In this document: positions 5,573-32,166 of the stretch, piece by piece
Position numbering within the stretch: the first letter of the stretch is position 1
Layout: each line of letters begins with the position of its first letter
Assembly (NCBI GenBank): GCA_965231015.1
Contig: OZ246408.1
Location: 545,237-609,236 of the forward strand
Reading direction: 5' to 3'
Source: an uncultured Gammaproteobacteria bacterium
GTDB taxonomy: Bacteria; Patescibacteriota; Patescibacteriia; UBA9934; CAZDDW01
Length of the DNA: 64,000 bases
Made by a program: the position numbers and the translations under genes
Notes under the pieces: generated by a model
Told to the model about the DNA's origin: nothing
What the model saw: the letters and a program-made list of their open reading frames with translations, nothing else
Databases searched by the model: none

Positions 5573-5577
5573 ATGTC

Positions 5578-7332: not shown

Positions 7333-7336
7333 AAGT

Positions 7337-7666
7337 TTAGTTATTAAATAAGATATCACTGCCAACAGCCTGTTCAACAATCTTTTTAAGATTGCTCAAG
7401 CCTTCCTTGGTTGCACCTTGCGGTGAAGGAACAGTTACAATTGCCGGCAAGGCCTCGCGTTCAAAGGCAGTGTCGAGTTCACTCCGAACCCGCCCGGCCC
7501 AGTCTTCGGTAATGAAGATTGCGCCAAACTGATCCGCCTTGATTTTGGCAATAATGTCTTGAATCTCATCAGTTTCTTTGATCGGAAAACACTTCACACC
7601 CAGGGCAATAAAGCCCATGATTGCTTCTTCGGTTCCTATCATGCCGATTTTGAATTCGTCAGACAT
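7337..7666 (-). CDS. atpF: V/A-type ATP synthase subunit F
   Basis: 109 aa. Position, size and the [19 protein letters not shown] motif all fit subunit F. Confidence 0.8.
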
Positions 7667-7667
7667 A

Positions 7668-8666: not shown

Positions 8667-8675
8667 GGGACTTGG

Positions 8676-9248: not shown

Positions 9249-9250
9249 AT

Positions 9251-9742
<492 letters not shown>

Positions 9743-9751
9743 TTAATTAAT

Positions 9752-11713
9752 TTATTCCACCAAGCTAACGTATTTAGCTTGTTTGATTAATGGTTTGAAT
9801 TTTCGGCCACCACCGACCATAAACTTCGGGAAATACTCCACGTATTGCAAACGTCCGGAGTGAATAAAGGCTCCCAGAACGTTGATGGCAAGGTTAAATA
9901 GGTGTCCGCCTACAATAATCACAATCCACACCAAGAATCCCACGTAAGGCACCATTCCAGCAAACAAATCCGCGACCAGGTTCACAACCATGGCAATAAT
10001 TCCAGTTGAAAGCCCCAGGGCTAGCAAACGTGAATATGAAAGAATATCTGATAGGTATCCGACCAGTCCGTACAAACTAGAAATTCCACCCAACAGTTTC
10101 ATCACAGGGTTCTTTTTCTCGTAACCCTGACTCAACACCATAACCCCGGTCCATCCAAGGACTAAATATAGAGCTATTTGAGAAGCACTAGCGAAAAGTC
10201 CGGCCATGGTAGCGATCCAGAATCCGATAATCAGTAAATAAATTGCCCAGAAACCGCTAGTGATAATTCCCTCTTTAGCTTCTCCGTGCGTAATCTTCCA
10301 GAACATGTTGACCAGGTTACCGACCACCATTTGAATGAAGCCAAGGATAAAACTCATAACGAGTACGGTCATCGGGTTGGCTACCGGATCAATCAAACGA
10401 ATTGATTCAAAGAAGTTTTTAAGCGCCCCATCAGGCAAATCTGTGATAACAATTCCGAACCATCCACCAAACAGGGCTCCAATAATGAACGTTGCGATTC
10501 CACCAAACATCATCAAGCTCATGAGTTTGCGCGCTCCACCCTTTGGTTTCATAAGTTTAATCGCGGCAAACGACAAAATCGCCAATAATAGTCCGTATCC
10601 AGCGTCAGTGAGACACAGCGCAAAGTATAAAATGAAAAATGGAGCCAGGTAAATCGTTGGGTCAGGTTCAGAGTAAAGTGGTGCTCCGTAGATTTCTGTG
10701 ACTGATTCAAATGGAGTAATAGCTTTGTTATTTTCAAGGGCAACCGGAATGTTTTCGTCTTCACGAATTGCTAGTTCTTCTAAAACATACTCTTTTGATA
10801 CCGCACTTAACTTATCCCTCATTTCTCCCATGGCACCAGTAGGCATCCATCCGGTAAAGATAACGGTCTGTTTGGTGGACAAAGCCTTTCGAGCCGCCTC
10901 ATCCTGATCTTTTTGCCAGGTCAAATAGTCGTATAAAATTCGAAAATCCGGAATGTGTTTAATGTATTCTTTGATGGCGGCCTTGGTTTCCCGCACCACG
11001 ACCCGGTCTTTTTCAATTTCACGCTCCAAGTTCTTAATTTCTGACTCAATGGTCTGCCCTTTTGCAATGGGCATATCCACAGCTTTAAACTCATTCACTT
11101 CAAAAGCGTCTTTGAGATCATCATGAATTGTCTTGTCATAGGCAACCACAACCCGTACTTCTTTATCGGTTTCACTGACTTTTAGAACAACTGCCAGTTG
11201 TTTCGCGTGTAAGGCAGACTCAAAATCCTCAAAGCGGGTAATTGGCACAATGCCCAGCACAAAATCAACAAAACGAGTTGACTCTGATAAATCAACCGGT
11301 ATTCCCTGCCATTTGGCCAGGTTTTTGACCTCTTTTTTGTTTTGACTGATTCGGTTTTTAGCCGCATTAAGGTCTTTATCTAGGTTTTCTAACTCCTGAA
11401 TCAGGTTTTTATAGTCAAAATTCGCCAGCAACTTAGCAAAGTCATTCTGGCGAACCTCAATTTTCCCTCCTTGTAGTTTTTCCAAAAAGCTCTTTTTTAC
11501 CTCTTCTTCGTACGGTGTAAGCAGGTCAAGGGCGAATTTAATGTTAGTTTGCCAGTATTCTGCTTTAGATTCCGGCTTAAATAAGTCTTTTTCTTCACTT
11601 TCTTCCAAGGCCTCAACCTCCATGATTCCCTCGGTATGCAAAATATCCAAAAGACGTGGATAAATCTCTTTGGTAGCAGTAAGTTGGATTTTTGTCATTT
11701 TACTGACTGACAT
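9752..11713 (-). CDS. atpI: V/A-type ATP synthase subunit I (a-type stator)
   Basis: 653 aa with a cytosolic coiled-coil N-half and a multi-TM C-half containing LSYSRLLALGL. The start may instead be Met6 (11698). Confidence 0.9.
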   Translation of the reverse strand: MSVSKMTKIQLTATKEIYPRLLDILHTEGIMEVEALEESEEKDLFKPESKAEYWQTNIKFALDLLTPYEEEVKKSFLEKLQGGKIEVRQNDFAKLLANFDYKNLIQELENLDKDLNAAKNRISQNKKEVKNLAKWQGIPVDLSESTRFVDFVLGIVPITRFEDFESALHAKQLAVVLKVSETDKEVRVVVAYDKTIHDDLKDAFEVNEFKAVDMPIAKGQTIESEIKNLEREIEKDRVVVRETKAAIKEYIKHIPDFRILYDYLTWQKDQDEAARKALSTKQTVIFTGWMPTGAMGEMRDKLSAVSKEYVLEELAIREDENIPVALENNKAITPFESVTEIYGAPLYSEPDPTIYLAPFFILYFALCLTDAGYGLLLAILSFAAIKLMKPKGGARKLMSLMMFGGIATFIIGALFGGWFGIVITDLPDGALKNFFESIRLIDPVANPMTVLVMSFILGFIQMVVGNLVNMFWKITHGEAKEGIITSGFWAIYLLIIGFWIATMAGLFASASQIALYLVLGWTGVMVLSQGYEKKNPVMKLLGGISSLYGLVGYLSDILSYSRLLALGLSTGIIAMVVNLVADLFAGMVPYVGFLVWIVIIVGGHLFNLAINVLGAFIHSGRLQYVEYFPKFMVGGGRKFKPLIKQAKYVSLVE

Positions 11714-12059: not shown

Positions 12060-12119
12060 CGAATCTGTTTTTGGGTCAATAGCATAAAAAAATTATGAAA
12101 TTAACTTAAATAAAGAGAA

Positions 12120-12151
12120 GAACGCCGATCCGTGAAGTTGGAAAGGCGTTC
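12120..12151 (-). terminator. Terminator-like hairpin after the 303-aa island gene
   Basis: GAACGCC-18 nt-GGCGTTC, followed on the minus strand by CUUCUCUUUAUUU. Confidence 0.45.
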
Positions 12152-12177
12152 GTGAGGTAGGGGTTGCGATCGAAGTC

Positions 12178-13089
12178 CTAGGGGGTGGACTCCTCGTTGA
12201 GCAGCTCCGGGTCGATGTTGTCGGTCAGGATCCCGGAGAGATCCGCGATTAGGCGGTTTCTGACGAATGGGTCCAGACCGGGCTCCAGCTCTTGGAAGCG
12301 GAGTTCGCGGATGCGCTCTTTGAGCTGGGCGTTTTTGCCCTTGGTGTACTCGGTCAGGCCAAGCACCCATTGGCGCTGCCAGGCCTGATGAGCGCGCAGC
12401 TCGCCCTTGCTCGGAGCTGGCGAACGCTTCGGGGTGAGCCGCGAGCGCACCGACTTGACCGTAGGAGTACCCTTGGGTACCGCCTTCGCCTCCGGCTTGG
12501 TGCCGGTTCCCTGCCCGAGTGTTTGCTGTTTCGGGTTCGCAGCTCCGGGAAGTTGGCCGACGAGCGAAGGAGCGGCAGGGTGCTCCGTGTTGGTAGGTTC
12601 GTCCGCCTTCGCCTTCGCCTCCGGCTTGGTGGCTCCGGGCAGTGCACCCTTGAGAACGGGTTCAGCCGGTGGCTCGTTAGTTCCCTCGTGCGGATCCGGC
12701 CTGCCGAGAATCGCGGCCGCCTCGCTTTCGAGCGGCCTGCGCTCGAGGTTGTGCCGCGCCGTCAAGTACTCGATCATGCACGGCAGGTAAACCTCGAGAT
12801 CGAACTCGTAGTCCAGGTCGTGCCCGGCAGCCTCGAGCTCTTGCTTGATGGCGGCAAGCGGGTCAGCCTCACCGGCCTTGGTATCCGAGGCCCTGAACAG
12901 GTCCTTCGGAAACTCGACCTTGAGCGGGTCGCCCAAGATCTGCTCGGCTCGCTCGTTAAAGTACTGTTCCGCCTCCGGCTCGGAAACAGCCGCTTCGAAC
13001 CGAGGGCTTGACTGGTCGACCCCGTCAGTGCGCTCACCGCGCAGTACGGCCAGACACGCGTCCAGAAACGCCAAAATTTTCGGATCCAT
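12178..13089 (-). CDS. Hypothetical protein (GC3-rich island gene A)
   Basis: 303-aa ORF whose codon third positions are almost all G/C in this frame. A strong SD (GGGAGGGAGGAAGCA) sits directly upstream of the ATG. It has a Pro/Ala/Lys-rich central linker with TKPEAKA repeats. I recognise no family. Confidence 0.6.
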   Translation of the reverse strand: MDPKILAFLDACLAVLRGERTDGVDQSSPRFEAAVSEPEAEQYFNERAEQILGDPLKVEFPKDLFRASDTKAGEADPLAAIKQELEAAGHDLDYEFDLEVYLPCMIEYLTARHNLERRPLESEAAAILGRPDPHEGTNEPPAEPVLKGALPGATKPEAKAKADEPTNTEHPAAPSLVGQLPGAANPKQQTLGQGTGTKPEAKAVPKGTPTVKSVRSRLTPKRSPAPSKGELRAHQAWQRQWVLGLTEYTKGKNAQLKERIRELRFQELEPGLDPFVRNRLIADLSGILTDNIDPELLNEESTP

Positions 13090-13192
13090 TGCTTCCTCCC
13101 TCCCGTATTTTTTGTGTTCGGTTTTTTAATTTTTCACCATAAGTCAATTTGGCGGTGTTCCGCCACAAAGAAAGAATGGCGGGAGACAGCTA

Positions 13193-13272
13193 AAAATAGC
13201 ACAAAAACAGACTTTTGTCAAGTTCTAGACACAAAGTACATACTTGACAAATATGCTAAATTGTGCTAAATT
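13193..13272. promoter_or_regulatory. Back-to-back divergent promoters built on a 10-bp perfect inverted repeat
   Basis: The inverted repeat is TTTGTCAAGT (13214-13223), 18 nt, ACTTGACAAA (13242-13251). The right arm gives TTGACA (13244-13249), 17 nt, TGC-TAAATT (-10 at 13267-13272) on the plus strand. The left arm gives TTGACA (complement of 13215-13220), 16 nt, TGC-TATTTT (-10 at the complement of 13193-13198) on the minus strand. TGCTAAATT is also directly repeated (13255-13262 and 13265-13272). Confidence 0.6.
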
Positions 13273-13403
13273 TTGCGGTTGGTTGAGGGCAATTTCGTCC
13301 TTAATTACGTTCGTTTCCCCAGACTGTGGGTAAAAGGTCCCACACTCCCAACACGCGCGCATCGCAGGTAAGTCGATGCCAACCGGGAGAGAAAGAGGAA
13401 GAC

Positions 13404-15056
13404 ATGACCACCGAAAAGAACCTGACGCCGGAGCAGATCCGGCACAACGAGATGGTAAAGCGGGAAGCGCTCGAACAATTCCGCATGGCCAACGTGCGGA
13501 TGGACAAGCGGGGCGGCAACCGTCCCGTGGGCATGGGCGATCTCGTGGAGATCGTGGTCCCCGGGTTCTCCGAGGACCAGTTCGGGAACGCCGTGGCCTA
13601 CGACGAGGACGGGACGTTGATCCGCCCGCTGTGGGCGCTCGATAACGGCTTCGTGCCGGTGCTCGCCGTGCCCATGCGGCTGTGGGTCGTGTACCCGCGG
13701 TCGCGCACCTTCGCCCGGAACAAGTACGGGGTGGCGATCCCGTTCGACATCGTCTACTTCAAGGGGAAGGGACTCGGCTTGTGGAACCACAAGCTCTCGG
13801 ATCGGTGTGAGTTCCGGAACGCCGTGGCCGTGCGGCAGACCCGTACGGTCATGGTGGCCTTCGAGCCGAACCCGCGGCGCAAGGACGAGTGGCACGGCGG
13901 ATTCGTCGGCGGCAAGCACATCGTGTGGAAGCCGCACGGCAACCCGTACGAGAACTCGGGCGTCGAGATTGGCATGCCGATCGAGGTCCAGGCAAGTGAG
14001 TCCTGGGATCGGATCGAGTGTCTGCCGGCCGTGCAGACGCGTCGGGTCAAGGCCGACGGTTCCGTTGAGGAGCTCGAGGTCCAGACCGCTCTGGTGGACG
14101 TGGCGCTCAAGCCTGGACAGATTCAGTGTCGGGCGAGCGGTGTACGCCTGTGGGCGCTCGACGCTCTGGGCGTCAAGCGTCACACCGACGAGGCGGTACT
14201 GGATCGGCGGATCGCCGAGATGCTCGCCACGCGCGGTGAGCGGCTCAATCCGGAGACCGACCCGTTCTGCCTCGCGGCCAAGGCCGCCGGCAGCACGGTG
14301 GACTACCGTCTCGCGGGCGTGAACGCTCGCGAGGTGGCCATCAAGAACTCCGGCTCGATCCTGCGCCCGAAGGCGCCGAAGATCGGACACGTGGCCATCT
14401 TGCACCCGGAGACCGGAGCCAAGATCTGCGACGTGCTGATCGAGGACGTGCTCGGGGGTGACCTCTCCATCTACTCGTCGCGCGACGAGGTGATGGCTCG
14501 GTTCAATCAGCTCAAGCGCTACCGGCGCAGGAGCTACGCCGAGCACAACGACGATGACACCATCGTCGAGGCCGTCAAGGCCGTGTTCAAGCGGTTCGGC
14601 GTGCACCTGGAGGTGGACAACAAGATTCGCTCCCAGGTCGGCGAGGACGCCACCCGCGCTCTGCTCGAGCGGCTGATCTCCCGGGGGAGCATTCGCTTCA
14701 AGCCGGCGCGGAGCCGCTCCGAGCTCGTGGTGAGTGCCTACGCGGTGCTCGGCCTCGAGTCCTCTGACGCGGACGAGGACAGCGTGTTCAAGCGCTTCCG
14801 CGAGCTCTACTTCGTCAAGAAGGGCAAGGTGGAGCGGGAGGATCCGGCCGTGATGGTCCTCTACAAGTCTCCGGGCTACAGGTCGAACCCCAACCAGAAC
14901 AAGGGGTACAACGACCGCCGGGCACTTATGCGAACCGCGGGAGAGCACCTGATGGGTGCGGACCGGTTCAAGACGGCGCTCACCCCGCCGGAGGAGCCGA
15001 AGTCCGAGTTCGACAACGAGGCCGAGGAGCTTCGCAGCTCGTCCGACGACGAGTAG
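13404..15056 (+). CDS. Hypothetical protein (GC3-rich island gene B)
   Basis: The ORF track lists 13326-15056. I prefer the ATG at 13404 because it is preceded by the SD AAGAGGAAG. About 550 aa, GC3-rich in this frame only, with a soluble-looking amino acid composition and no motif I recognise. Confidence 0.6.
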   Translation: MTTEKNLTPEQIRHNEMVKREALEQFRMANVRMDKRGGNRPVGMGDLVEIVVPGFSEDQFGNAVAYDEDGTLIRPLWALDNGFVPVLAVPMRLWVVYPRSRTFARNKYGVAIPFDIVYFKGKGLGLWNHKLSDRCEFRNAVAVRQTRTVMVAFEPNPRRKDEWHGGFVGGKHIVWKPHGNPYENSGVEIGMPIEVQASESWDRIECLPAVQTRRVKADGSVEELEVQTALVDVALKPGQIQCRASGVRLWALDALGVKRHTDEAVLDRRIAEMLATRGERLNPETDPFCLAAKAAGSTVDYRLAGVNAREVAIKNSGSILRPKAPKIGHVAILHPETGAKICDVLIEDVLGGDLSIYSSRDEVMARFNQLKRYRRRSYAEHNDDDTIVEAVKAVFKRFGVHLEVDNKIRSQVGEDATRALLERLISRGSIRFKPARSRSELVVSAYAVLGLESSDADEDSVFKRFRELYFVKKGKVEREDPAVMVLYKSPGYRSNPNQNKGYNDRRALMRTAGEHLMGADRFKTALTPPEEPKSEFDNEAEELRSSSDDE

Positions 15057-15064
15057 ATCCTACC

Positions 15065-15088
15065 AAAAAAACAGCCGGCAACCGGCTG
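15065..15088 (-). terminator. Rho-independent terminator of the 15140-15982 gene
   Basis: The minus-strand RNA reads CAGCCGG-UUG-CCGGCUG followed by UUUUUUU. Confidence 0.6.
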
Positions 15089-15100
15089 CCTTCCAAACAG

Positions 15101-20837: not shown

Positions 20838-21944
20838 TTAGTGTTCGTAAAGTTCAGTACCTGGGAAGTGGGCCACCCAACAAAACCAATAGCTTGGGGT
20901 CGTGATGATTTCTTTGAGTTGAACGCCTGCCAGTTCCCCATCCAGACCAAATCCATAGAAGCTCCAAACAGTACCGGTTTGTTCATCCATGAGCAGATCT
21001 CCGTTCCATTTAAATGTGAGAGTTTGGTTATCCACAACTCGCGAAAAAGTGCGGGTTGTCAAAAAATCTTTGTCATGCATGATCACGATTTTCAGGTCTT
21101 TCACCGTATCATTAATGACTGTTTCCAGGCTTATTTGATCCATACTCCAAGCTTTTGCATATTGAGTTCCCTGATGGAAACCAAGCACCATATCCTTGAT
21201 GGCCAGCCTGGTGTCGACGTGGTGTAAAGGAAAACGGATATCTGTATTTTCATAATATTCCCAGTATGGATCCATGGTGTAGTCGCGCTCGGCTCCGGTG
21301 TTACGGTTCAGGGCATAACCGTTCGGGTATTGACTCTTGAAAGCTTCCCAGTTTATTAGTGTGGCTGGGCGTTGTTCAAGCTCGAGTCCCGGCTCGTTTC
21401 CTTTGATCTGTATTCCGAAAATTTGTGACCAGTAAGAATTATCTTCGTGTGAATACATGACTAGGTTGTTTTCATAAAGACTGCCCGTGGTTCCAAATGT
21501 CGTTTCTCCTCGTTCATATACGGCAACGCTGTGGCAAAGTGGGCAATATGTAACAGCAAGGTTGATGCCGTCTAAGTCATCATTAACGATTTCGTGCCAG
21601 GACATAATCTGAAAAGAAAAGAAAAGCGGTTCTTCTCCATCCGTCACCGCGATTCCAAGGCCGCTATCACTTAAATAAGTATCAGCCATTCCAATAGAAT
21701 CGTAGTGCGGATCGTTAATCGCTGGAATGGCATCCTGACTTGTAACTTGGGTGATTCTTTCAGGCAGAACAATCAATTGATCGCCATCTTTTTCTCGTTG
21801 ATCTTCCAAAAGTGAACTAACGCCACGGGTGACCACGGTTTCTACCGGCTTAGGAATCATCTGGTATAACCAAAATTGGTATCCAATGATACCAAGGCTG
21901 GCCAAAACAACTAATATAATTCCAATGATGCTTGTTTTGTTCAT
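20838..21944 (-). CDS. DUF3179 domain-containing protein
   Basis: VTYCPLCHS signature. Start moved to Met19 (MNKTSIIGIILVVLASLG anchor). Confidence 0.7.
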   Translation of the reverse strand: MNKTSIIGIILVVLASLGIIGYQFWLYQMIPKPVETVVTRGVSSLLEDQREKDGDQLIVLPERITQVTSQDAIPAINDPHYDSIGMADTYLSDSGLGIAVTDGEEPLFFSFQIMSWHEIVNDDLDGINLAVTYCPLCHSVAVYERGETTFGTTGSLYENNLVMYSHEDNSYWSQIFGIQIKGNEPGLELEQRPATLINWEAFKSQYPNGYALNRNTGAERDYTMDPYWEYYENTDIRFPLHHVDTRLAIKDMVLGFHQGTQYAKAWSMDQISLETVINDTVKDLKIVIMHDKDFLTTRTFSRVVDNQTLTFKWNGDLLMDEQTGTVWSFYGFGLDGELAGVQLKEIITTPSYWFCWVAHFPGTELYEH

Positions 21945-21954
21945 GGTTAAACAA

Positions 21955-22185
21955 TTATAAATCGAGTTTGTTTTTGAGCTTTTCCTCGTCAAAACCAACC
22001 ATTATTTCTCCGTCGATTTCGATTTGTGGCACCACCATCTGTCCTGATTTCTTCATAAGTTCCTCGCCAGCGGCCTGGTCAGTAGCTAAATCGATATCCT
22101 CAAATTCGACATTGTTCTTGGTTAGAAATTCCTTGGCCATTTTGCAGTATGGGCAGGTTGGAGTTGAATATACTTTTACCGTCAT
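21955..22185 (-). CDS. Glutaredoxin-family small redox protein
   Basis: 76 aa with the CPYC active site in VKVYSTPTCPYCKMAKEFL. Confidence 0.85.
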   Translation of the reverse strand: MTVKVYSTPTCPYCKMAKEFLTKNNVEFEDIDLATDQAAGEELMKKSGQMVVPQIEIDGEIMVGFDEEKLKNKLDL

Positions 22186-22195
22186 AGTTTTTTTG

Positions 22196-23692
22196 TTAAA
22201 ACTTACGGATTAATTCTAACATGGTTCGAACACCCACTCCAGTTGCCCCGTGTTGGTAATACGCTGTTAAGGGTTTTTCTGCGTAAGACGGTCCGGCAAT
22301 GTCTAAGTGGGTCCATGGGGTTTTATTAACGAACTTTTCTAAAAACAGAGCTGCTTTGGTTGCCCCGGCCTCACGGCCACCTAAGTTATTCATGTCTGCT
22401 ACCTTTGATTCAAGTCGCTTTCGAAAGCGATCATCATCAAGTGGCAATTCCCACATTTTTTCTCCGGCCAGGTCACAGGCTTCAAATAGCTTGTTAAGTA
22501 AGGTGTCATCATTTCCCATCACCCCAGTACGGTTTTCACCAAGCGCGACAATAACCGCCCCGGTTAGCGTGGCCAGGTCAACAATGGCATCCGGTTTTTG
22601 TTTTACTGCATATGAAAGCGAATCGGCCAAGGTAACCCGACCCTCGGCATCAGTATTTTGAATCTCAATAGTTTTACCGTTCATGGCGGTTACAATATCA
22701 CCCGGCCGAATCGAGTTTCCACCAGGCATGTTTTCACACGCGGCAAAAATTCCATCAACCGCAATTTTTGGCTTCAGCGCATGTAGGGCGGAAAAAACAC
22801 CTAGCACCGTGGCACCACCGGCCATATCAATTTTCATTTGTACCATTCCCTCAGCCGGCTTCAGAGAAAGTCCACCAGAATCAAAGGTAATGGCTTTTCC
22901 AACAAGTGACAGTTTCTTTTTGCTGTTTGGTGGATTGTATGAAAGATGCACCATATATGGTTCTGCGTGTGATCCTTGCGCAATCGATAAGAAAGCTCCA
23001 GCCTTCATGGTCTCGAGACGAGCTCGATCCATAACCTTACATTTGATCACTCCTTTGCTATTTTTGGCAATTTCTTTGGCCGCGGCCACCATGTCCTCCG
23101 GTTTCATAAATTGAGCAGGAGTATTAACGAGGTTCTGGGCAACTACTGTTCCGGCCGCCATGATTGATCCAAGTTCAATTCCCTTTTGAGCACCGCGTAC
23201 GGTTGGCATTCTCCGAGTCATAATAATAAACTGCTCGATCTTGCTTTTCTTTTTCTTGTTTTTATAAGCGTCAAATTCGTAGGCGGCAAGGTATACTCCT
23301 TCGGCCATAGCTTGTCCTGATTCAGCCGGCTTCAAGCCACCCCAACCAGCTCCGTGTAAAATTGTAACGATTTTTTTAAGACCGAGCTTTTTAGCGGCAT
23401 TAAAAGACACAGCTGTAGCTTCACGAACTGCTTCCATATCAAACTTGTCTTTTTTACCAAGCCCAACCACCATGACACGTTTGGCTGGGATCAAACCTTC
23501 GGTACGAATCAAAATTGATTCCCCACTTTTCCCTTTAAAACCTTCCTCTTTCCAGATTTTTTTTATGAGTCCGTCTGTGGCCTCATTCACGGCTCCAGTG
23601 GCTCCGCCAGGCTCGGTTCCTTCAAATTCATTAATAACCAGAAGATCACATTTTTCTTCGGTTAAATCACCTTTTTGCACGATAATTTCCAT
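22196..23692 (-). CDS. pepA: Leucyl aminopeptidase (M17)
   Basis: NTDAEGR motif, KAITFDSGG and MKIDMAGGA blocks. Confidence 0.9.
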   Translation of the reverse strand: MEIIVQKGDLTEEKCDLLVINEFEGTEPGGATGAVNEATDGLIKKIWKEEGFKGKSGESILIRTEGLIPAKRVMVVGLGKKDKFDMEAVREATAVSFNAAKKLGLKKIVTILHGAGWGGLKPAESGQAMAEGVYLAAYEFDAYKNKKKKSKIEQFIIMTRRMPTVRGAQKGIELGSIMAAGTVVAQNLVNTPAQFMKPEDMVAAAKEIAKNSKGVIKCKVMDRARLETMKAGAFLSIAQGSHAEPYMVHLSYNPPNSKKKLSLVGKAITFDSGGLSLKPAEGMVQMKIDMAGGATVLGVFSALHALKPKIAVDGIFAACENMPGGNSIRPGDIVTAMNGKTIEIQNTDAEGRVTLADSLSYAVKQKPDAIVDLATLTGAVIVALGENRTGVMGNDDTLLNKLFEACDLAGEKMWELPLDDDRFRKRLESKVADMNNLGGREAGATKAALFLEKFVNKTPWTHLDIAGPSYAEKPLTAYYQHGATGVGVRTMLELIRKF

Positions 23693-23753
23693 AAAAACGT
23701 TGGTTACTTTTCTTGAGTGCTAAGCTTAGCGTAAAAATGCTTAATAATCAAGA

Positions 23754-23776
23754 GAACCGACCTTTCTGGTCGGTTC
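23754..23776 (-). terminator. Terminator-like hairpin after the alkylation-repair gene
   Basis: Perfect 9-bp stem GAACCGACC-TTTCT-GGTCGGTTC overlapping the stop codon. It is followed on the minus strand by a U-rich tract. Confidence 0.5.
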
Positions 23777-24485
23777 ATGACATGGCCTGTTTCTTTTTTT
23801 TCTGTGGCATCTTCTCGATCGCGTACCGCAGAGCCGTGCGCGGCATTCTGTCTTTGTATTTCATAACAAAGTCAAAAACCTCTTTTTGATTATGCTCAGC
23901 TGTAGTTTTTAACATCCAGCCATATCCTTTTTGAACCAAATCGTCCTGATTCATCATTAGTTTGTCTGCCACCCAAAAAACATCTTTCCGTACGTCTCGA
24001 GCCTTTTGAATCGGGCCAATAAAACTAACGGCCGCTGCTCTTTTAACCCATCGGTTTCGAGACTTTACGTAAGCTCTGACTTTTGGAATCAGACTCGGAT
24101 ACCGAGATAAAAGCTCGCTCATGGCATGAGTGCAAAACGTATCAACCAGGGCCCAATTGGTCAGGTAGTTCTTTACGATCTTGTCGAAAAATTTGAAATC
24201 GGATTCAGTGAACTCTTTTTTCCGACGATAGATCCAGTCAAAACCAATGATCGCCTCCTCGTTCATATTCGATTTAATCAATTCTTCTGCCAAATCAAAC
24301 ACTTCTTGCTTACTCAAGTGTTTTATCTTGGCATACGCTTCGCTTCCGATTGTTTTAACATGAGGTGATCGAACACCCCAGCATTTAATGGGTTCCTTAT
24401 AAAAACGAATAGCACCATCTCGATACGGAATGTCGACATGTTTCTTAAGTTCTTTTCGAACGTCAGAAATGGTTTTAGTAGCCAT
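23775..24485 (-). CDS. DNA alkylation repair protein (AlkD-like HEAT-repeat family)
   Basis: 236-aa helical repeat protein. The motifs NWALVDTFC and RWVKRAAAVSF resemble the AlkD/AlkC-like family. Confidence 0.55.
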   Translation of the reverse strand: MATKTISDVRKELKKHVDIPYRDGAIRFYKEPIKCWGVRSPHVKTIGSEAYAKIKHLSKQEVFDLAEELIKSNMNEEAIIGFDWIYRRKKEFTESDFKFFDKIVKNYLTNWALVDTFCTHAMSELLSRYPSLIPKVRAYVKSRNRWVKRAAAVSFIGPIQKARDVRKDVFWVADKLMMNQDDLVQKGYGWMLKTTAEHNQKEVFDFVMKYKDRMPRTALRYAIEKMPQKKKKQAMS

Positions 24486-24756
24486 GTTCGATTAGCCAAT
24501 CAACTGCTTCCGCGGCTTTTTCAATTGCTTTATCGTACCGCCCTTGCTGATAAAGTTCGCTAGATTCTAAGTAAAGTGCCTCTGATTCAGACACGTCCTC
24601 TCCAGCTCGCAGGGCCGGTCCTTGGTGAGTCGTAAATTCAACCGTGAGTTCGCGGTATCGATCAGACTGGGCATCAGTTGGTTGTGGGGTGTTTGAGCAC
24701 CCAACACCGGTCAATACTAGAGTTAAGATCAGAGCGATAAAAACTTGTTTGATCAT
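24475..24756 (-). CDS. Small lipoprotein, unknown function
   Basis: Signal peptide with lipobox LTGVGC (MIKQVFIALILTLVLTGVGCS). Confidence 0.6.
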   Translation of the reverse strand: MIKQVFIALILTLVLTGVGCSNTPQPTDAQSDRYRELTVEFTTHQGPALRAGEDVSESEALYLESSELYQQGRYDKAIEKAAEAVDWLIEHGY

Positions 24757-24761
24757 AGAAT

Positions 24762-25643
24762 TTAGTTTAATGATTCCGACAATGAATCCTCATCTTCTTG
24801 ATACTCACAATAACAATAATCAGTATCACCGTCTTCGCACTCTGCAATTGAAAAGGCACCTGTTTCTTGCTCGCCCTCTGCTTCACAACGCCCATTGAAA
24901 AAACCAACACTCTGGCAAGACTGCTGACACGCTTCAGCTGTATCAAAGACATGCGAATCTTTTAAATTTGTACAGTCTTGACCGTCAGAGCGAAAATAAT
25001 CCCACTCTTCACAAATGCGAATTTTTGAAAGATAACAATAAGAAACAGTGCCTTCCCGGGTTTCCACGGACATTGTTTCGTATCCTTTGTCTTGGCAGTA
25101 AACTGATGCCGGGTTGGCCATTGAGGTTGAGTCTGAATCAACAACATTGTCTGTATATCCACAATAAACAGTAATATCTGTAGAGTTTTCTATCAGGTTA
25201 CCTAATTCGTCTGCGATAGATTGCGTCTCAACTACGCAAGCCAAATTATCATCCAAATATCCGCTTTGAGCACTAACCGTTCCGGCTGAAACATTGTAGA
25301 CATCAAGATTAAACAAGGCGTTGATGAAAAAGTTTTCCACGGCCCTAGCGTCAACTTCGGCCGCTCCGGTGGTTTTGGTGACGTATCCGTTTAAGGTCAT
25401 TTCATTAATGACCATTTCCTCTCGGATATTCCAATTAAAAGTAACCTGTGTTGGGATTGAGAAATCAAGTCCGGTTTGAGCCTCCATTTCTTCCATAATA
25501 AACTTAATTTCTGCAAAATCGTCAGCTGGTACCTTAGTGTCTTCCGGGTCATCAATGGTTTTGCGATTCTGCCACACCATAAAAGATATTACGGCCAGAA
25601 TGAGGATGCCAATGATTAAAATGAATCTATAAGGATGGTTCAT
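24762..25643 (-). CDS. Membrane-anchored protein with a DUF333-like Cys-rich C-terminal domain
   Basis: N-terminal TM segment. The C-terminal MANPASVYCQDKGYE...GTVSYCYL...CEEWDYFRSDG resembles DUF333. Confidence 0.5.
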   Translation of the reverse strand: MNHPYRFILIIGILILAVISFMVWQNRKTIDDPEDTKVPADDFAEIKFIMEEMEAQTGLDFSIPTQVTFNWNIREEMVINEMTLNGYVTKTTGAAEVDARAVENFFINALFNLDVYNVSAGTVSAQSGYLDDNLACVVETQSIADELGNLIENSTDITVYCGYTDNVVDSDSTSMANPASVYCQDKGYETMSVETREGTVSYCYLSKIRICEEWDYFRSDGQDCTNLKDSHVFDTAEACQQSCQSVGFFNGRCEAEGEQETGAFSIAECEDGDTDYCYCEYQEDEDSLSESLN

Positions 25644-26757
25644 ATTGCAAAATGTTATATTCGAGAATTTTTATAAGTCCTAAAACAGTATGTTGGGCAT
25701 AATCGATTCTTTGTTTTTGGTTGCTTATGGAGTGTTGCCAGCCGCCGTTGTCGGTTTGCAGAGCCAGAAGATAGTTCAGGGCCAATCGAATCGAGTCAGA
25801 ATACCTTGATTGTCGAGCCTTATCCCCAACGGTTTCCGCAAGCTTATAAGCTTCAACCAGAGCCTCAACCATACTTGCCGTGGCAATTCTTGGATCATCC
25901 TTGCTAAAAGCCCCAAGTAAGGCCAGGTCGTTTGAGACTGTTATTTGTTCATTTTCGACTATCCAATCGTTCATGTCAAATACAAAATTCACCACCTCGA
26001 AATCTTGGGTTGCCTCAAAAAGTAACAACCCCATCTGACTTTGCCACGGCACGAACGCCGTGCTCTTATTTTCGACCCAATAATCACGATAGTACGTAAA
26101 TGCTTTTTGAACACTTTCAAGGTATTGAGAATCATTGGTTTGGTCGTAAGCCATCATTAAAGCGAGCATGGCTTCACCAGGGTAATAATCTTGGCCGTAG
26201 AGTAGATCCGAATCAAATTCTGGTCGGTATGATCCGTCTTCGTTTTGCAGCTCGAGAATACCGTTAGTATACAACCGGATTTCCTCTTCCCTGCTTGAGT
26301 CATTGAGATGGAAGAGATCGATTACAAGAAAAGCATTCATGGCAAGTTCAGCCTTTTCAAAATCAAGATAGCAGTAGTCATTATTACAACTCGACTCTTC
26401 AAGATAAAAGTCCAGTGTCTTTTTGATTGGGGCTGAAAGCTCGTCCTTGCCAACAGAGCGAACGAGTTCGATCATGGACCAAACCGAAGCCAGTTCTCGA
26501 ATCTCATTGTCCTCGTCTGAGAATGATTCAGTGGTTGGGTCAAACTCATATTCAAGCTGTCCTGTCTCTTGATTAATCATAAACTCGAACCAGTCCGCGG
26601 TTCGTTCTATTCTAGGAGCAAGATCCGAGTCTGAATAATCAAGCTCAAGGTCACTGGCTCGATAATACGGTCCATCCCAAACGATGAAATATAAAAAACC
26701 AAGCAGATATACCACCAGGCTGATTCCCAAAATGAAAATGATTCGCAAACCTCGCAT
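25627..26757 (-). CDS. Membrane-anchored protein with prenyltransferase/terpene-cyclase-like repeats (tentative)
   Basis: 376 aa with an N-terminal TM segment. QW-like motifs LQNEDGSY and LQTDNGGWQH suggest an alpha/alpha-toroid fold. Confidence 0.4.
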   Translation of the reverse strand: MRGLRIIFILGISLVVYLLGFLYFIVWDGPYYRASDLELDYSDSDLAPRIERTADWFEFMINQETGQLEYEFDPTTESFSDEDNEIRELASVWSMIELVRSVGKDELSAPIKKTLDFYLEESSCNNDYCYLDFEKAELAMNAFLVIDLFHLNDSSREEEIRLYTNGILELQNEDGSYRPEFDSDLLYGQDYYPGEAMLALMMAYDQTNDSQYLESVQKAFTYYRDYWVENKSTAFVPWQSQMGLLLFEATQDFEVVNFVFDMNDWIVENEQITVSNDLALLGAFSKDDPRIATASMVEALVEAYKLAETVGDKARQSRYSDSIRLALNYLLALQTDNGGWQHSISNQKQRIDYAQHTVLGLIKILEYNILQYEPSL

Positions 26758-26758
26758 A

Positions 26759-27547
26759 TTATTTTATGGGGATTTCTAACCAGAAGGTGCTCCCTTTTCC
26801 CTCTTGACTCTTAAAACCAATATCACTATTGTGAAACTCCACCATTCGTTTAGACAAATGCAAACCAATTCCCAATCCATCAGGATTAACCGTTCTGACA
26901 TTGGAACCGCGATAAAACACATCGAAGATTTTTTACTGTTCAGCTTTTGGTATTCCCAAGCCTTGGTATTCAGGTAGATAAAAACTCACGTGTTCGTGAA
27001 GACCAGGAATCGGTTGACCGGGTTTGATTTCTACAATATCATAAGTCCCTTTTGTCCAAGTGGCTTTACCAGTGGCAAGATCCATTTTCCAACCACTGAT
27101 CTTAGCAATTTTTTTAACCTTACGAAGCAGTTCTTGTTTTTCAGATAATTGTTTCTCTGTTTCTTTACGTTTAGAAATATCACGCGCTGAATCCCACATG
27201 TAAAGTGGATTTTTATTTTTGTCAAAAACAGTGAAAGAACTTAAAATGGTTCCGTTCTTTTTGACATACCCTTTTTCATAAATGCCGCTGTACCCGTTTT
27301 TCTTCAGTCGTTTTTCCACGATCTCATTCATTTCCCACTGATGCCATTTTTTTAGAGCTATCTTTAAAAAGTTTAAACCAATTATTTCCTTTTTTGGATA
27401 TCCGACGATTTTTACAAAAGCTTTGTTAACGTTAGTAGTGTTACCCTCCAGGTCGATCATAACAAAACTGTCTCGGAAGTTCTCGAACATTTCCTTGTAT
27501 CTTGTTTCACACACACCCGGACACTTATGAGCTTGCTTTTTGGGCAT
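26759..27547 (-). pseudogene. Decayed PAS-domain sensor histidine kinase
   Basis: A 204-aa PAS ORF (26933-27547) ends at an in-frame TAA. The same frame continues as KIFDVFYRGSNVRTVNPDGLGIGLHLSKRMVEFHNSDIGFKSQEGKGSTFWLEIPIK*, which is the G1/G2 end of HATPase_c. The HisKA phospho-acceptor and the N-box are missing altogether. Confidence 0.7.
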
Positions 27548-27549
27548 GA

Positions 27550-27906
27550 TTAGACTCGTGACTTATCAAGGTGTAGGTAGAATATGACTTTGGTGTAATA
27601 GTCTAGACCCAAATAAATTAACGCGGAAGTAAAATTTGTAATTACACCTGTTCCTTCCGGGGCTAGAATGAAGATAATCGGAAAAAATGACCAACCAAAC
27701 ATAATATAGGGCAGAGCCAATTTGTTGTTTTTATTACCCTTGTCTTGGAACAGTAATTTTATTTGAAGAATGTAATAGATACACCCAAGGCCAAAAATGA
27801 TCCACAAATGAGCAATGAGATTAATCCGAAAATATGAACTGATTGGATTGTAAAAAAATCCATAAGAGGTCTGATTAATGATATTATAGCAAAAAAAGTG
27901 GTAAAT
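27550..27906 (-). pseudogene. Microbial (type 1) rhodopsin, C-terminal fragment (helices ~D/E-G)
   Basis: The frame is open from the TAG of the upstream gene and its only start codon is a TTG. GWSFFPIIFILAPEGTGVITNFTSALIYLGLDYYTKVIFYLHL aligns with bacteriorhodopsin [44 protein letters not shown] (helix F WxxYP; helix G D...K Schiff-base lysine). Helices A-C are absent. Confidence 0.7.
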
Positions 27907-29310
27907 CTAAAGGAATTGGTTGATAATAACAAAGCCGCTGAAAAATCCAAAGAACACGAAAATTCCGGCTAGTATTATCCTTCTTAAAACGGTTGGTTGG
28001 TAGGCCTTGGGTAAAGCTCTAAAGTTCAAGACCGAGACTAAACCAATATGAACGAACATGGCTACGGCATTAATTACTGCCCCAAGTACCAAGAGTGATT
28101 TTGGTTCAGAAATTCCAAAAGCAAACAGAATTATCCCGAACGCAATTTGAGCCCACAAAAAGATGTAGTAAATCTTTGAGAGTTGAATTTTATTATTTCC
28201 AGTTCTTTTAGTCTGAACAATAGCAGCATTTTCGGCCATAATGCGAGAGGTTGAGTCCATGACACCAAGTTGGGTCTGAAAAAGCATGACAGCTACGACT
28301 AACAAGAATGCTGCACCGATTGCCGGGCCAAGTATGGAGCCTATGACCATACCCTCATTGATCACAAACTGAATTCCCTCTGCGTTGCTTTCCATGCCTG
28401 CGGTTGTCGTATGAGCCAAAAGCATTAGAAGCAAGATGGAGACAGCCCCAATGAACCAGAACACGATTGCATGTTCTGTACTTATGCGGCGCCACCAGAT
28501 TCTAAAATAACTAATATCCTGCTTTGATTCGCTTGCGGTTACTCCTTCAAGCCTAATTTTTTGGACTACACCGTCAGCTCGAAACAGGCCAGCCAAACGC
28601 TCGGCGTACTTCCCCATCCCATATCCCTTCTCTTTCACATAAATCGATTGGGTCAAGTTTAAGTTTCCTCCGGCTCCAGAATAGGCAAACGCAGCCAAGA
28701 AAGTGGCTAAAACAATTCCCTCGGGTAAGAAACTGTATTCGTTGCCTTGCCCGATAATTCCTGAAGCAAGTGCTGCCCAGTCGGCTTGTGTTGCAACAAC
28801 AATCGCCAGAATAAACACCAATGGCACTCCGATTAAAATGATTGATCTTGTTAGACTCTCCATCAAACCGTAAACCGTTTTTCCAGAGCTAAGAATTAAT
28901 CCGATCACGATCAGGAACAAGATAGCGGTCGCTGTGTAGTAGTTTTCCAGACCAACAAGAGTTGAGAATACATGAGCTGAAGCCGCAATAATTCCCGGAA
29001 GTCCAAAGCCGATAAAGGTTGATAGGATAAACCAAAAAGGTGCCGCTTTTAAGTACTTGGCGATTCCAACAAAGACACTCTCGCCCTTAACAAGCGCGTA
29101 TCTTTCAATTTCCATATTAATAAAATATTGAAAGGTGATTCCAAGTACAGCCCCCCAAGCAATACCAAGCCCATAGTTTGAAGCTAAATATGGCCACAGA
29201 ATAACCTCGCCCGAACCCAAACCAAGAGCCAAAATAATAAAACTTGGTCCTATAAGTTTCTTAAGCCGGATTGGTTTTGGAAAAGGTTTTGTTGTGGTCG
29301 ACTTTGGCAT
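27907..29310 (-). CDS. Nramp-family-like multi-TM transporter
   Basis: 467 aa, about 11 TM helices. The N-terminal GPSFIILALGLGSGEVILWP and QYFINMEIERYAL resemble Nramp/MntH-related transporters, with GSGE in place of DPGN. Confidence 0.55.
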   Translation of the reverse strand: MPKSTTTKPFPKPIRLKKLIGPSFIILALGLGSGEVILWPYLASNYGLGIAWGAVLGITFQYFINMEIERYALVKGESVFVGIAKYLKAAPFWFILSTFIGFGLPGIIAASAHVFSTLVGLENYYTATAILFLIVIGLILSSGKTVYGLMESLTRSIILIGVPLVFILAIVVATQADWAALASGIIGQGNEYSFLPEGIVLATFLAAFAYSGAGGNLNLTQSIYVKEKGYGMGKYAERLAGLFRADGVVQKIRLEGVTASESKQDISYFRIWWRRISTEHAIVFWFIGAVSILLLMLLAHTTTAGMESNAEGIQFVINEGMVIGSILGPAIGAAFLLVVAVMLFQTQLGVMDSTSRIMAENAAIVQTKRTGNNKIQLSKIYYIFLWAQIAFGIILFAFGISEPKSLLVLGAVINAVAMFVHIGLVSVLNFRALPKAYQPTVLRRIILAGIFVFFGFFSGFVIINQFL

Positions 29311-29329
29311 TAATCTATTTTACCACAAG

Positions 29330-30649
29330 TCAATAAAAATCTTTTACCCGGGAATCAGTGATGATGCTGGAACGTGAGAGTTTTTTCTTGAGAACAATTC
29401 CATTTAAAGAAGTGCAACGACTTAACGCTACATAGGTTTGACCGTGAGCAAAACTGCCATGCCCCAAATCAATAATAACTTTATCAAAGGTTTTACCTTG
29501 ACTTTTATGAATTGTGATTGCCCAAGCCAATTTGAGTGGAATTTGTTGGTAAGAACCCATTACGTCACGCGTGAATTCCCCGTCCTCAAAGACATAACGT
29601 GATATTTCCCAATTGTATTTCTTTACCTCAATAACAGAGCCGTCACTTTTTTCGACCGACACGATAAATTCATCTTCCCCACTCTCGCAGTTCAAAAATT
29701 TTTCAATGTTAACCACTTTACCGATTGTACCATTCACAAATCGTCGTTCCGAATCATTACAGATGAACATGACCTGGGCACCGACACATAAGGCGATTTC
29801 CTCATTGTTTGGATACAAATTTCTTGCCACCTTGCCTGACTTTTTAGCGCTAATCACTGTTTCTTTTTGTTTCAATTTTTTCAGTTCAGCTGAATTGATC
29901 CTATCTGCCATGACGTTTGTGGTTACCAAATAAATATACTTATCATTCTTTTTTGGCACAAAGTCTGGAACAAAGCGTGTGTTCAAGATGTTTAGGTGTT
30001 CGTCGCTAACCTCATTATTTCTAACAGCGTTTAAGACGTTGATAAGTCGGCTGTCTTTTTGTCGATAGATTTTTTTTAGTTCAATGACGTTTAAAACAAA
30101 ACTATTTGAAAACAGGTCGTTTTGACCAAGATTATGGAATACATTAGCGTCAAAAAAATACGGTGAATCGTATTCGGAAACAAGCTTGTCCCGATCGGCA
30201 GGTGTGACCACCGGTGGCAACTGGAATAAATCACCGAAGAAGATCATTTGTACTCCGCCAAAAGGTTCATTACTTTGACGAGCTTTTTTTAAAACCGTAT
30301 CCACCGCGTCTAAAAGATCAGCTCTCACCATGGAAATTTCATCTATTGCGATGGTTTTAATCCGTTTTAATTTCTTCTTCATCTTATGATTAATCTTCAT
30401 TTTCTTGGCTTCATCAAGTTCATACCCCGGTTTCAGTAAAAAAAATGAATGCAATGTTTCCCCGTTGACATTAATTGCTGAAATTCCTGTAGGAGCCAAA
30501 ACAATGATTTTCTTTTTGGAATGAAGCCTAATGTGATCCAATAAAGTTGACTTACCGGTACCGGCCTTCCCGGTAATATAAAGAGTGTCACGAGTTTTTT
30601 CTATCCTCGTGACAATATCTTTTGCTTGTTTTGATAGTTTAACTGTCAT
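29330..30649 (-). CDS. Pif1/RecD-like P-loop DNA helicase
   Basis: Walker A GKAGTGKST, Walker B AIDEISMV, and C-terminal motifs ITIHKSQGKTF and QTYVALSRC. Confidence 0.8.
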   Translation of the reverse strand: MTVKLSKQAKDIVTRIEKTRDTLYITGKAGTGKSTLLDHIRLHSKKKIIVLAPTGISAINVNGETLHSFFLLKPGYELDEAKKMKINHKMKKKLKRIKTIAIDEISMVRADLLDAVDTVLKKARQSNEPFGGVQMIFFGDLFQLPPVVTPADRDKLVSEYDSPYFFDANVFHNLGQNDLFSNSFVLNVIELKKIYRQKDSRLINVLNAVRNNEVSDEHLNILNTRFVPDFVPKKNDKYIYLVTTNVMADRINSAELKKLKQKETVISAKKSGKVARNLYPNNEEIALCVGAQVMFICNDSERRFVNGTIGKVVNIEKFLNCESGEDEFIVSVEKSDGSVIEVKKYNWEISRYVFEDGEFTRDVMGSYQQIPLKLAWAITIHKSQGKTFDKVIIDLGHGSFAHGQTYVALSRCTSLNGIVLKKKLSRSSIITDSRVKDFY

Positions 30650-30654
30650 CTACT

Positions 30655-31230
30655 CTATTTATTTTTTGCAACTGTTTTTTTGGTTACCGACTTTTTTTTC
30701 GCCGGTGCTTTCTTGTTAGTCTTCTTTTTTATTGCCGGTTTATTTTTAGTTTTCGTAGCACCTTTTTTGGCGGTCTTTTTGACCGGTTTTTTCTTATCTT
30801 CTTTTTCCTTGTTTAGTAGGATATCTTTTATTACAGTTGGTTTAAGAACTTTAAGAATTTCATCAAGTTTATCATTGAGAATCTCGAACTGTTTATTTGA
30901 TGAATCGGTTCCACCATCATTATTTTCAAAACAAGCGCTACAGAAAACGGGTTTACTGCCGGTTGGTTTAAACGGAACTTCACAACTATTACCACATTCG
31001 CTACAAGTGGCTTCATACATCTGTTTATTGCCACGGTCATTTCTTCTATGACCTCTATTATTGCTTCTACCTTGATCTGAACCTCGAAAACAATCATTAC
31101 AGAAAACGGGTTTACTGCCGGTTGGTTTAAACGGAACTTCACAACTATTACCACATTCGCTACAAGTGGCCTTGTGCATCGACGATTTTCTATCTCTGCC
31201 GCCCCGGCTGTCTTTTCTAAAATTTCCCAT
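30655..31230 (-). CDS. Double CxxC-x17-CxxC zinc-ribbon protein with Lys-rich tail
   Basis: Two copies of TCSECGNSCEVPFKPTGSKPVFC(N/S)(D/A)CF, then a KKKP/KKTAKK tail. Confidence 0.8.
   Translation of the reverse strand: MGNFRKDSRGGRDRKSSMHKATCSECGNSCEVPFKPTGSKPVFCNDCFRGSDQGRSNNRGHRRNDRGNKQMYEATCSECGNSCEVPFKPTGSKPVFCSACFENNDGGTDSSNKQFEILNDKLDEILKVLKPTVIKDILLNKEKEDKKKPVKKTAKKGATKTKNKPAIKKKTNKKAPAKKKSVTKKTVAKNK
30940..31170. repeat. 72-bp perfect intragenic direct repeat (30940-31011 and 31099-31170)
   Basis: ACAGAAAACGGGTTTACTGCCGGTTGGTTTAAACGGAACTTCACAACTATTACCACATTCGCTACAAGTGGC occurs twice, 159 bp apart. It encodes the two zinc ribbons. Confidence 0.9.
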
Positions 31231-31340
31231 AACTTTTATTAACGTGTTATTAGTAGATAAAGTGTATGCTTATTTTGATTCGAAAGCAAGGGGTAAGTTC
31301 TAAAAACAAAGACGAAGCTGTAAACGTGCTTCGTCTCTCT

Positions 31341-31415
31341 TGGCTCCGAGGGCGGGGTTCGAACCCGCGACCCACTGGTTAACAGCCAGTTGCTCTGCCA
31401 CTGAGCTACCTCGGA
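31341..31415 (-). tRNA. tRNA-Asn (GUU), CCA encoded
   Basis: The minus strand reads TCCGAGGTAGCTCAGTGGCAGAGCAACTGGCTGTTAACCAGTGGGTCGCGGGTTCGAACCCCGCCCTCGGAGCCA. It forms a full cloverleaf with anticodon loop CTGTTAA. Confidence 0.95.
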
Positions 31416-31425
31416 TTGTGCCGAG

Positions 31426-31454
31426 ATATTATCAAGATCAAAGATCGTTGTCAA
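31426..31454 (-). promoter_or_regulatory. Consensus sigma70-type promoter of tRNA-Asn
   Basis: On the minus strand: TTGACA (31454-31449), 17 nt, TAATAT (31431-26). The tRNA 5' end lies 10 nt downstream. Confidence 0.65.
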
Positions 31455-31500
31455 CCAAAAACCCGGATCCAACTTCCGTGGTCTCGGGTTTGTTTTTGGT

Positions 31501-32166
31501 CTATTTTGTGGCTGGCATGATCGATGAAAGAATGGTTTCAATGTCGTCGCTATCAAAATTAGCATCTGGGAACCAAACCCCGTCAAGATCATCCGGTACC
31601 GGTTCTGTGCTTTCCACTATGTTCCAGTCCATTGAGAATATTTCGTCATCAATTTCTACAGCATAGCAACCCATGGCCGGAGCACACCCGATTTGATAAA
31701 TAGTGACATAGTCAGTTTCATCAACCTCAGTGTAAGAATCTGTTATTTCCTCTAATTCACCGATTTCAATCGTTTCGGTGATTACATACGGCGAGGTTTC
31801 AGTGACAAGCACCAGTTCGTCAGATCGGTTTGCCTGCACCTGCCAGTTTTCTGGGATTTCCATGGTGAAACCAGTTGTTAAGGTGATTATTTGTGTTTCC
31901 CCCTCTGTTGCTAAATCGTCATCCATGGCTTCGTCTTCCCCCATTGTTCCCTCTTCTTCCATTTGAATCGCTTCAATGTCTTCCGAGTTTACTTCTAAAT
32001 TGCTCTGAATTTCATCAAGGGCAAGACTGATTTCGTTCAGACTCATTTGAGTCATGAACAAGCTAATCAAAACCGCTACAATAGCGAGTCCTGACATAGC
32101 CACACCTAGCACATTTAGAAAATTTGCGCTTGACGGACGTGGATCTTGAGGTTGTTTTTCCTCCAT
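31501..32166 (-). CDS. Membrane-anchored acidic protein, unknown function
   Basis: 221 aa with one TM segment (VLGVAMSGLAIVAVLISLFM), then a strongly acidic ectodomain. Confidence 0.55.
   Translation of the reverse strand: MEEKQPQDPRPSSANFLNVLGVAMSGLAIVAVLISLFMTQMSLNEISLALDEIQSNLEVNSEDIEAIQMEEEGTMGEDEAMDDDLATEGETQIITLTTGFTMEIPENWQVQANRSDELVLVTETSPYVITETIEIGELEEITDSYTEVDETDYVTIYQIGCAPAMGCYAVEIDDEIFSMDWNIVESTEPVPDDLDGVWFPDANFDSDDIETILSSIMPATK

Follow-up and report, generated by a model that had tools for sequence, protein, structure and literature searches.

The 64,000-nt stretch of DNA analysed here (64 kb, the window in what follows) carries on its minus strand 84 codons (27553..27804) from the 3′ portion of a schizorhodopsin gene, which encode helices E to G and are directly followed by a TAA stop (27550-27552). 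Most likely, these codons form an ordinary pseudogene whose family is already known; we consider it very probable that they are a non-functional schizorhodopsin remnant, left by a deletion or rearrangement. A preliminary description of this DNA had assigned the whole of 27550-27906 to the C-terminal part of a rhodopsin with an intact Schiff-base lysine. The identification stands, the fragment being recognized by the Pfam Bac_rhodopsin profile above its cut-off and by a profile of the family (E=2.2e-31), and the extent holds from 27804 down; rhodopsin sequence is absent from the first 34 codons (27805-27906).

The remnant lies in a minus-strand frame open over 118 codons, from the TAG stop of an upstream Nramp gene (27907-27909) to the TAA at 27550-27552. 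As described before, this frame is in phase with the upstream TAG and contains no ATG; a TTG at 27807 is the earliest canonical start, and an ORF beginning there would be 85 aa long. The peptides first quoted for helices E-G are reproduced exactly by this frame. Helix E (WIIFGLGCIYYILQIKLLF, 27748..27804, minus strand) aligns with the segment KWVVFALGCVFFINQIILLF of P0001, a full-length relative. Helix F (27658..27720, minus strand) carries GWSFFP, in which Trp and Pro correspond to W182 and P186 of bacteriorhodopsin (BR), followed by the PEGxG loop. Its motif is WxxFP, the schizorhodopsin form, and not WxxYP as initially read. Helix G (27568..27645, minus strand) aligns with its counterparts in AntR, SzR4 and BR and contains LDYYTK (27589-27606), where the Asp (27601-27603) is equivalent to BR D212 and the Lys (27589-27591), four residues later, to BR K216, the retinal Schiff-base lysine.

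In family alignments of 19 and 30 sequences, the helix F invariants G, W, F, P, F and the helix G invariants L, D, T, K, F, Y are all retained in the remnant, and the type 1-like W, P, D and F (BR 182/186/212/219) are present as well. The homologous part amounts to 84 codons, compared with a family length of 190-223 aa. Among the seven helices A to G, E, F and G alone are encoded; helix C is deleted and with it the F-S-E motif (BR 85/89/96) and the Cys at the position of BR T90. The remnant has no gene call in other assemblies carrying the same DNA, and no identical predicted protein exists in a collection of 5.8 billion clusters.

Several comparisons assign the remnant to its family. Pfam Bac_rhodopsin (PF01036), the HMM check proposed in the preliminary description, places it among rhodopsins with E=3.1e-7 and 30.5 bits against a gathering score of 24.6, over profile positions 126-213 of 224. 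The best match among solved structures is the Antarctic rhodopsin AntR (9or2, 7e-15, its residues 122-198 of 223), followed by schizorhodopsin 4, SzR4 (7e4g, 1.4e-8), and, in third rank, by chloride-pump rhodopsins (4.5e-4, that is ~5e-4), while BR chains give E values of 5e-4 to 5e-3 limited to the last 50 residues. A bacteriorhodopsin-type or proteorhodopsin-type gene is rejected, AntR and SzR4 ranking above the BR chains; schizorhodopsins are also nearer to the remnant than XeR or HeR, and the bacteriorhodopsin-like comparison made at first gives way to the schizorhodopsin/AntR clade of inward pumps. When a profile of 17 full-length family members was run against the six frames of the window, the remnant was the sole match (profile positions 118-200 of ~200). 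By family, as judged from these similarities, the remnant is a member of the bacterial schizorhodopsin/AntR clade of inward H+ pumps.

Relatives of the remnant were sought on a larger scale. With HMMER, run exhaustively over 1.84 billion representative proteins, 50 matches only were obtained, mostly of 190-215 aa, nearly all of which begin at query residues 31-38. A word-indexed search of the 5.8 billion clusters returned one close relative, P0001 (204 aa), with 57% identity over its residues 120-203. Identity between the remnant and full-length relatives, found on metagenome contigs and in MAGs labelled Uhrbacteria and ‘Saccharibacteria’, ranges from 45 to 57%, and the close relative P0086 carries the NCBI name ‘schizorhodopsin’. 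One protein, P0005 (2,223 aa, six matching stretches), was discarded as spurious: it is made of low-complexity PPAVVGAGIVF...LTYSRRG repeat units and has no Pfam domain.

The breakpoint is sharp at both protein and DNA levels. The first residue with protein homology is Trp35 of the 118-codon frame (window position 27804), the counterpart of residue 120 of P0001, and DNA similarity to the genes of four relatives begins at the same base (27804/5). Helices A-D (~119 codons) are absent from all six frames of the 64 kb window, both in tblastn with a full-length relative and with the family profile. The preliminary description had reported helices A-C as missing; their absence is real, and the loss extends to four helices, A to D, instead of three. 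The lost portion includes the start codon and helix C with its conserved Arg, F-S-(E/T) motif and Cys.

Between the Nramp stop and the rhodopsin homology lies a spacer of 102 nt (27805..27906, minus strand), open in frame, with the junction at its 3′ edge (~27805). Over these 34 codons neither the family profile nor the DNA of relatives gives a rhodopsin match in any frame. A second-frame ORF of 34 codons, comprised within 27759-27861 and with an ATG at 27861, encodes MDFFTIQ... (MDFFTIQSVHIFGLISLLI...) and looks helix-like by eye. Its reading as the original start plus helix A is unsupported, as it does not figure among the reported matches of the helix A profile, a comparison of 19 residues and of low power. 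At the DNA level the helix A region of a relative gives a single match, with E=0.22, whose register fits neither coding frame and which extends into the helix E region.

A consensus scan also detected a promoter-like TTTAGA-17 nt-TATAAT on the minus strand (27883..27911; TGCTATAAT; 10/12 with a TG before the -10 hexamer), a candidate that could serve to transcribe the remnant and downstream genes. The window contains TGNTATAAT 3 times, no more than chance predicts. Elsewhere in the window, a few genes have TATAAT ~10 nt before their ATG (e.g. upstream of 1104 and 48297) and a Shine-Dalgarno-like sequence is missing ahead of most start codons, which suggests that leaders of window genes are very short or absent.

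The two genes that border the remnant differ in their state. Upstream, and abutting it, is an intact gene for an Nramp-family divalent metal transporter of 467 aa (27907..29310, minus strand, TAG stop 27907-27909). The Nramp-like assignment made earlier was right: NCBIfam NF037982 covers the protein over profile positions 1-404 of 404 (E=5.2e-87), and no Pfam match was found for this gene. Downstream, the ATG of the next gene comes 2 nt past the stop of the remnant and opens a decayed PAS sensor histidine kinase (26759..27547, minus strand). A 204-aa PAS ORF (26933-27547; PAS match E=9e-8) is closed by an in-frame TAA (26933-26935), and is then followed by the end of an HATPase_c domain (to 26762) which, as a fragment alone, matches profile positions 61-109 of 111. 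The pieces share one frame across this single TAA, and when the sequence is joined across it the HATPase_c match grows to positions 45-109 of 111, with 46.7 bits vs 32.6 for the fragment alone. No HisKA was detected and the first 44 positions of the HATPase_c profile are also missing, so that the neighbour has neither a HisKA/DHp domain with its phospho-accepting His nor a complete HATPase_c. An internal deletion and a nonsense codon have disrupted this sensor kinase, a decay that the preliminary description did not report. At E<=1e-10 its PAS protein has no homologue other than itself.

The following sequence of events would account for this arrangement. The ancestral gene would have encoded a retinal-binding protein of ~200 aa and seven helices that uses light to pump protons inward. 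Its promoter-proximal part, namely the start codon and ~119 codons for helices A-D, or the 5′ 60% of the gene, would have been lost in a deletion or rearrangement that broke the gene at ~27805, and helices E-G would have remained fused to ~100 nt of unrelated spacer after the Nramp stop. The adjacent PAS histidine kinase would also have been broken, by its own internal deletion and nonsense codon. Since two adjacent genes are broken in an otherwise compact genome, this short segment is apparently losing genes. No intact orthologous locus was found in the collections searched, and the ancestral arrangement, the size of the deletion and its mechanism are thus reconstructed rather than observed. 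We infer that deletion is the cause and that the remnant has no function.

The retained part shows little sign of age. On a profile of helices E-G the remnant scores ~106 bits, and the 17 intact members, each left out in turn, score 82-110 (mean 97). The 84 codons contain neither an internal stop nor a frameshift. As no decay is visible in the retained part, the choice is between a recent deletion and a piece still under selection. Because these codons resemble the family as closely as intact genes do, we call the event recent on the evolutionary scale, which seems more likely than continued use of the piece. As for activity, half of the retinal pocket (helices C and D) and helix C itself are missing, so the remnant alone could not form a retinal pocket or a proton path. 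Even if transcribed, the 85-codon TTG ORF should have no pump activity, and both retinal binding with a photocycle and inward H+ transport are expected to be absent.

A different origin of the junction, possible but less probable, would be a replacement: horizontal transfer or a rearrangement would have brought in the Nramp gene, perhaps together with a Pif1 helicase gene, in place of the 5′ half of the rhodopsin gene; the product would be the same dead remnant. In agreement with such an arrival, none of the Nramp homologues at 47 metagenome loci (34-84% identity) has a rhodopsin nearby and the closest schizorhodopsin loci have no Nramp; as the two genes are not paired elsewhere, their adjacency here is lineage-specific. 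A tRNA-Asn gene is also found 3.4 kb upstream. However, no integrase, att-like repeat of the tRNA or flanking direct repeats were detected in 24000-32000, and there is no GC step at the junction. The signs of insertion proposed as a check near the 3′ end of the transporter gene did not appear, and insertion of a mobile element at tRNA-Asn was rejected as no att-like repeats were found. It should be added that arrival of Nramp and simple deletion are indistinguishable as long as no intact orthologous locus is at hand.

It is improbable, in our opinion, that the three-helix piece is functional, whether as one half of a split rhodopsin whose helices A-D would be encoded elsewhere in the genome or as a repurposed small membrane protein with the TTG at 27807 as its start codon. 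Complementary helix fragments of bacteriorhodopsin can be made to reassemble in vitro. All the invariant residues remain, the Asp and the retinal Lys among them, and on the profile the piece scores as high as intact members, an intactness that ongoing selection on the fragment would equally yield. The promoter-like site lies upstream of the possible TTG start, and the ORF is packed tightly against the following gene. On the other hand, that following gene is itself broken, the frame is devoid of ATG, and the ORF is predicted by no gene caller. The N-terminal half was not found within the 64 kb, and among the best 120 of 202 family hits there is no second rhodopsin copy on the 1,002,985-bp contig that carries the locus. 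A complete internal gene limited to helices E-G was seen in no other database entry; one short hit, P0012, was examined at its locus, and it starts 25 nt from a contig end. That the E-G fragment is deliberately kept, as a split schizorhodopsin with a separate A-D half (or one derived from host or partner) or as a light-independent small membrane protein, is judged highly improbable.

We also considered that an intact rhodopsin gene is hidden by a wrong join or a collapse in the assembly or by an erroneous frameshift. The junction does fall within a T-rich, low-complexity spacer. Nevertheless, two contigs from Logan, one of 9,062 nt from run SRR7048225 (window 21907-30968) and the other of 3,426 nt from run SRR7048221 (window 26122-29547), are 100% identical to the window and span both the junction and the in-frame stop of the kinase. 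Three assemblies thus agree base for base over 3.4-9 kb across the junction, and the layout of the flanking genes is continuous and compact. Moreover, ~360 nt of coding sequence is absent in every frame, beyond what a frameshift could hide. With two separate runs identical across the junction and the N-terminal coding sequence absent from all frames, misassembly or a hidden frameshift is very unlikely. Of the two options proposed at the outset, a recent truncation or an intact gene masked by an assembly or sequencing error, the first is the better one and the second is made very unlikely by these runs.

Finally, read-through of the TAG into a transporter-rhodopsin fusion protein is effectively refuted: the frame is indeed open and continuous with that of Nramp, but the transporter profile is already covered in full ahead of the TAG, no homology was found for the linker of 34 codons, three helices of a rhodopsin would not make up a folded pump, and TAG is a normal stop that ends 16 of the 51 genes of the window. 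The in-frame adjacency to the transporter, noted in the preliminary description, therefore carries little weight, all the more as an open stretch of 33 codons is expected by chance in ~11% of cases at this base composition, by our estimate. With TAA ending 26 genes and TGA 9, all three stops are in normal use as in the standard code, and recoding of a stop codon was rejected for this reason.

The remnant has intact relatives in many genomes. A scan of one genome per species revealed 28 loci with relatives of the remnant, hosted by CPR/Patescibacteria MAGs, Anaerolineae, cyanobacteria and one Bdellovibrionales bin; the CPR hosts include Uhrbacteria, Paceibacterota, Nomurabacteria, Parcubacteria and MAGs labelled ‘Saccharibacteria’. 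At all 11 loci checked (10 from CPR and the Bdellovibrionales bin) an ORF of 191-223 aa spans the match. None of the neighbouring genes is common to the window and the 28 loci. The search for a full-length orthologue suggested earlier gave full-length relatives, the nearest with FST or FSS in helix C, and no intact orthologous locus. The idea that rhodopsins are sparse in CPR bacteria does not apply to this clade, of which CPR/Patescibacteria form a main host group (bioRxiv 10.1101/2025.10.15.682728).

The helix C motif separates these relatives. FSE is present in 117 of 147 relatives of 185-245 aa, and the closest full-length relatives of the remnant display F-S-T (10 proteins) or F-S-S (5) at BR positions 85/89/96 (for example P0001, P0002, P0004, P0006, P0058, P0065, P0079 and P0120; loci L002 and L004-L009). 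The F-S-T/F-S-S subgroup lacks the helix C Glu whose replacement in SzR1 (E81Q) abolishes all transport (PMC7148096). No characterisation of this subgroup was found.

Gene contexts around these relatives include some recurrent arrangements. In the MAG carrying P0002, the closest genome relative (L004 7174-8642), two small PAS genes lie directly upstream of the schizorhodopsin gene. A functional link between rhodopsin and PAS was not retained and the resemblance is treated as a coincidence: these PAS genes are unrelated to that of the window, and other relatives are without PAS neighbours. A conserved 130-aa gene (58-68% identity) follows the schizorhodopsin gene in three MAGs, one labelled Uhrbacteria and two ‘Gammaproteobacteria’ (L005 4717-5106, L008 2199-4233 and L009 8406-10475), two of which also share genes of ~395 aa and 124 aa at this place (77-81% identity). 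The 130-, ~395- and 124-aa genes have no Pfam match and are absent from the window. At L083 (3005-6618), the gene for P0079 comes just after genes for a cation-efflux transporter, a metal-sensing repressor and a SLAC1-type channel. A metal transporter thus precedes schizorhodopsin both there and in the window; with two cases, this may be chance.

Other features of the window deserve a brief mention. Nearly all of its genes are on the minus strand, in a compact one-strand array, and one run of genes (4184-11713, minus strand) includes V-type ATP synthase subunit I (9752-11713, E=1.5e-106). An island at ~12100-15100 has 54-59% GC vs ~43% for the genome. It contains a 303-aa ORF (12178-13089, minus strand) and a 576-aa ORF (13326-15056, plus strand) overlapped by a long antisense ORF; none of the three has a Pfam or NCBIfam match, and the island looks like foreign DNA. 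Further on, a 191-aa protein (30655-31230, minus strand) contains a treble-clef zinc finger (PF23477, E=3e-33) in duplicate; a direct repeat of 94 nt, with 93% identity between its units (30928-31021 and 31087-31180), encodes the two copies.

For annotation, the remnant should be labelled as a schizorhodopsin pseudogene and not as a rhodopsin, and the genome is not to be listed among phototrophic or light-responsive ones. The value of the remnant is that of a record of recent schizorhodopsin loss in a small genome, which its contig of ~1.0 Mb marks as probably patescibacterial, a small data point on the role of inward proton pumps in such hosts and on when they become dispensable. As the family and its presence in CPR-type bacteria were already known, novelty is restricted to one degenerate member. 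The little-studied F-S-T/F-S-S subgroup is possibly worth characterising, a matter that concerns the relatives and not the remnant locus.

The description of schizorhodopsins from Asgard archaea presented them as inward H+ pumps whose helices F and G are type 1-like (PMC7148096). A preprint of 2025 has since shown that many are bacterial, that Patescibacteria and Asgard archaea are the two main host groups of the clade, and that AntR, GSS_AntR and SzR2 fall in or near the bacterial groups (bioRxiv 10.1101/2025.10.15.682728). The taxonomic spread recovered here (CPR, Anaerolineae and cyanobacteria) agrees with that survey, which required alignments of at least 190 residues and for this reason would not have collected E-G remnants (bioRxiv 10.1101/2025.10.15.682728).

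The nearest known systems are the schizorhodopsins of the bacterial clade (AntR, GSS_AntR, SzR2, paSzR and psSzR), light-driven inward H+ pumps of Patescibacteria, cyanobacteria and Anaerolineae. The remnant shares with them WxxFP, the PEGxG loop and LDxxTK(I/V)xFY, but it has kept 84 of ~200 codons and lacks helices A-D, the helix C motif and the start codon. Its closest intact relatives themselves display F-S-T or F-S-S, in contrast to the FSE of the characterised pumps. The archaeal proteins SzR1 and SzR4 are also comparable, as the remnant retains the equivalents of SzR1 Trp154, Pro158 and Asp184 along with the helix G Lys (PMC7148096); yet archaeal schizorhodopsins (SzR4, 1.4e-8) are more distant from the remnant than the bacterial clade, and relative to them too it is truncated. 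With bacteriorhodopsin the remnant has in common W, P, D and K at the positions of W182, P186, D212 and K216. Nevertheless, this similarity is weak and confined to helices F-G, the position of BR Y185 is occupied by Phe, and the two belong to separate families, the characterised schizorhodopsins pumping in the opposite direction to bacteriorhodopsin. Lastly, although its retained part is still free of the secondary decay seen in bacterial pseudogenes born of partial deletion, the remnant resembles them in being truncated at its 5′ end, deprived of a start codon and placed beside a gene that has itself undergone an internal deletion and acquired a nonsense codon.
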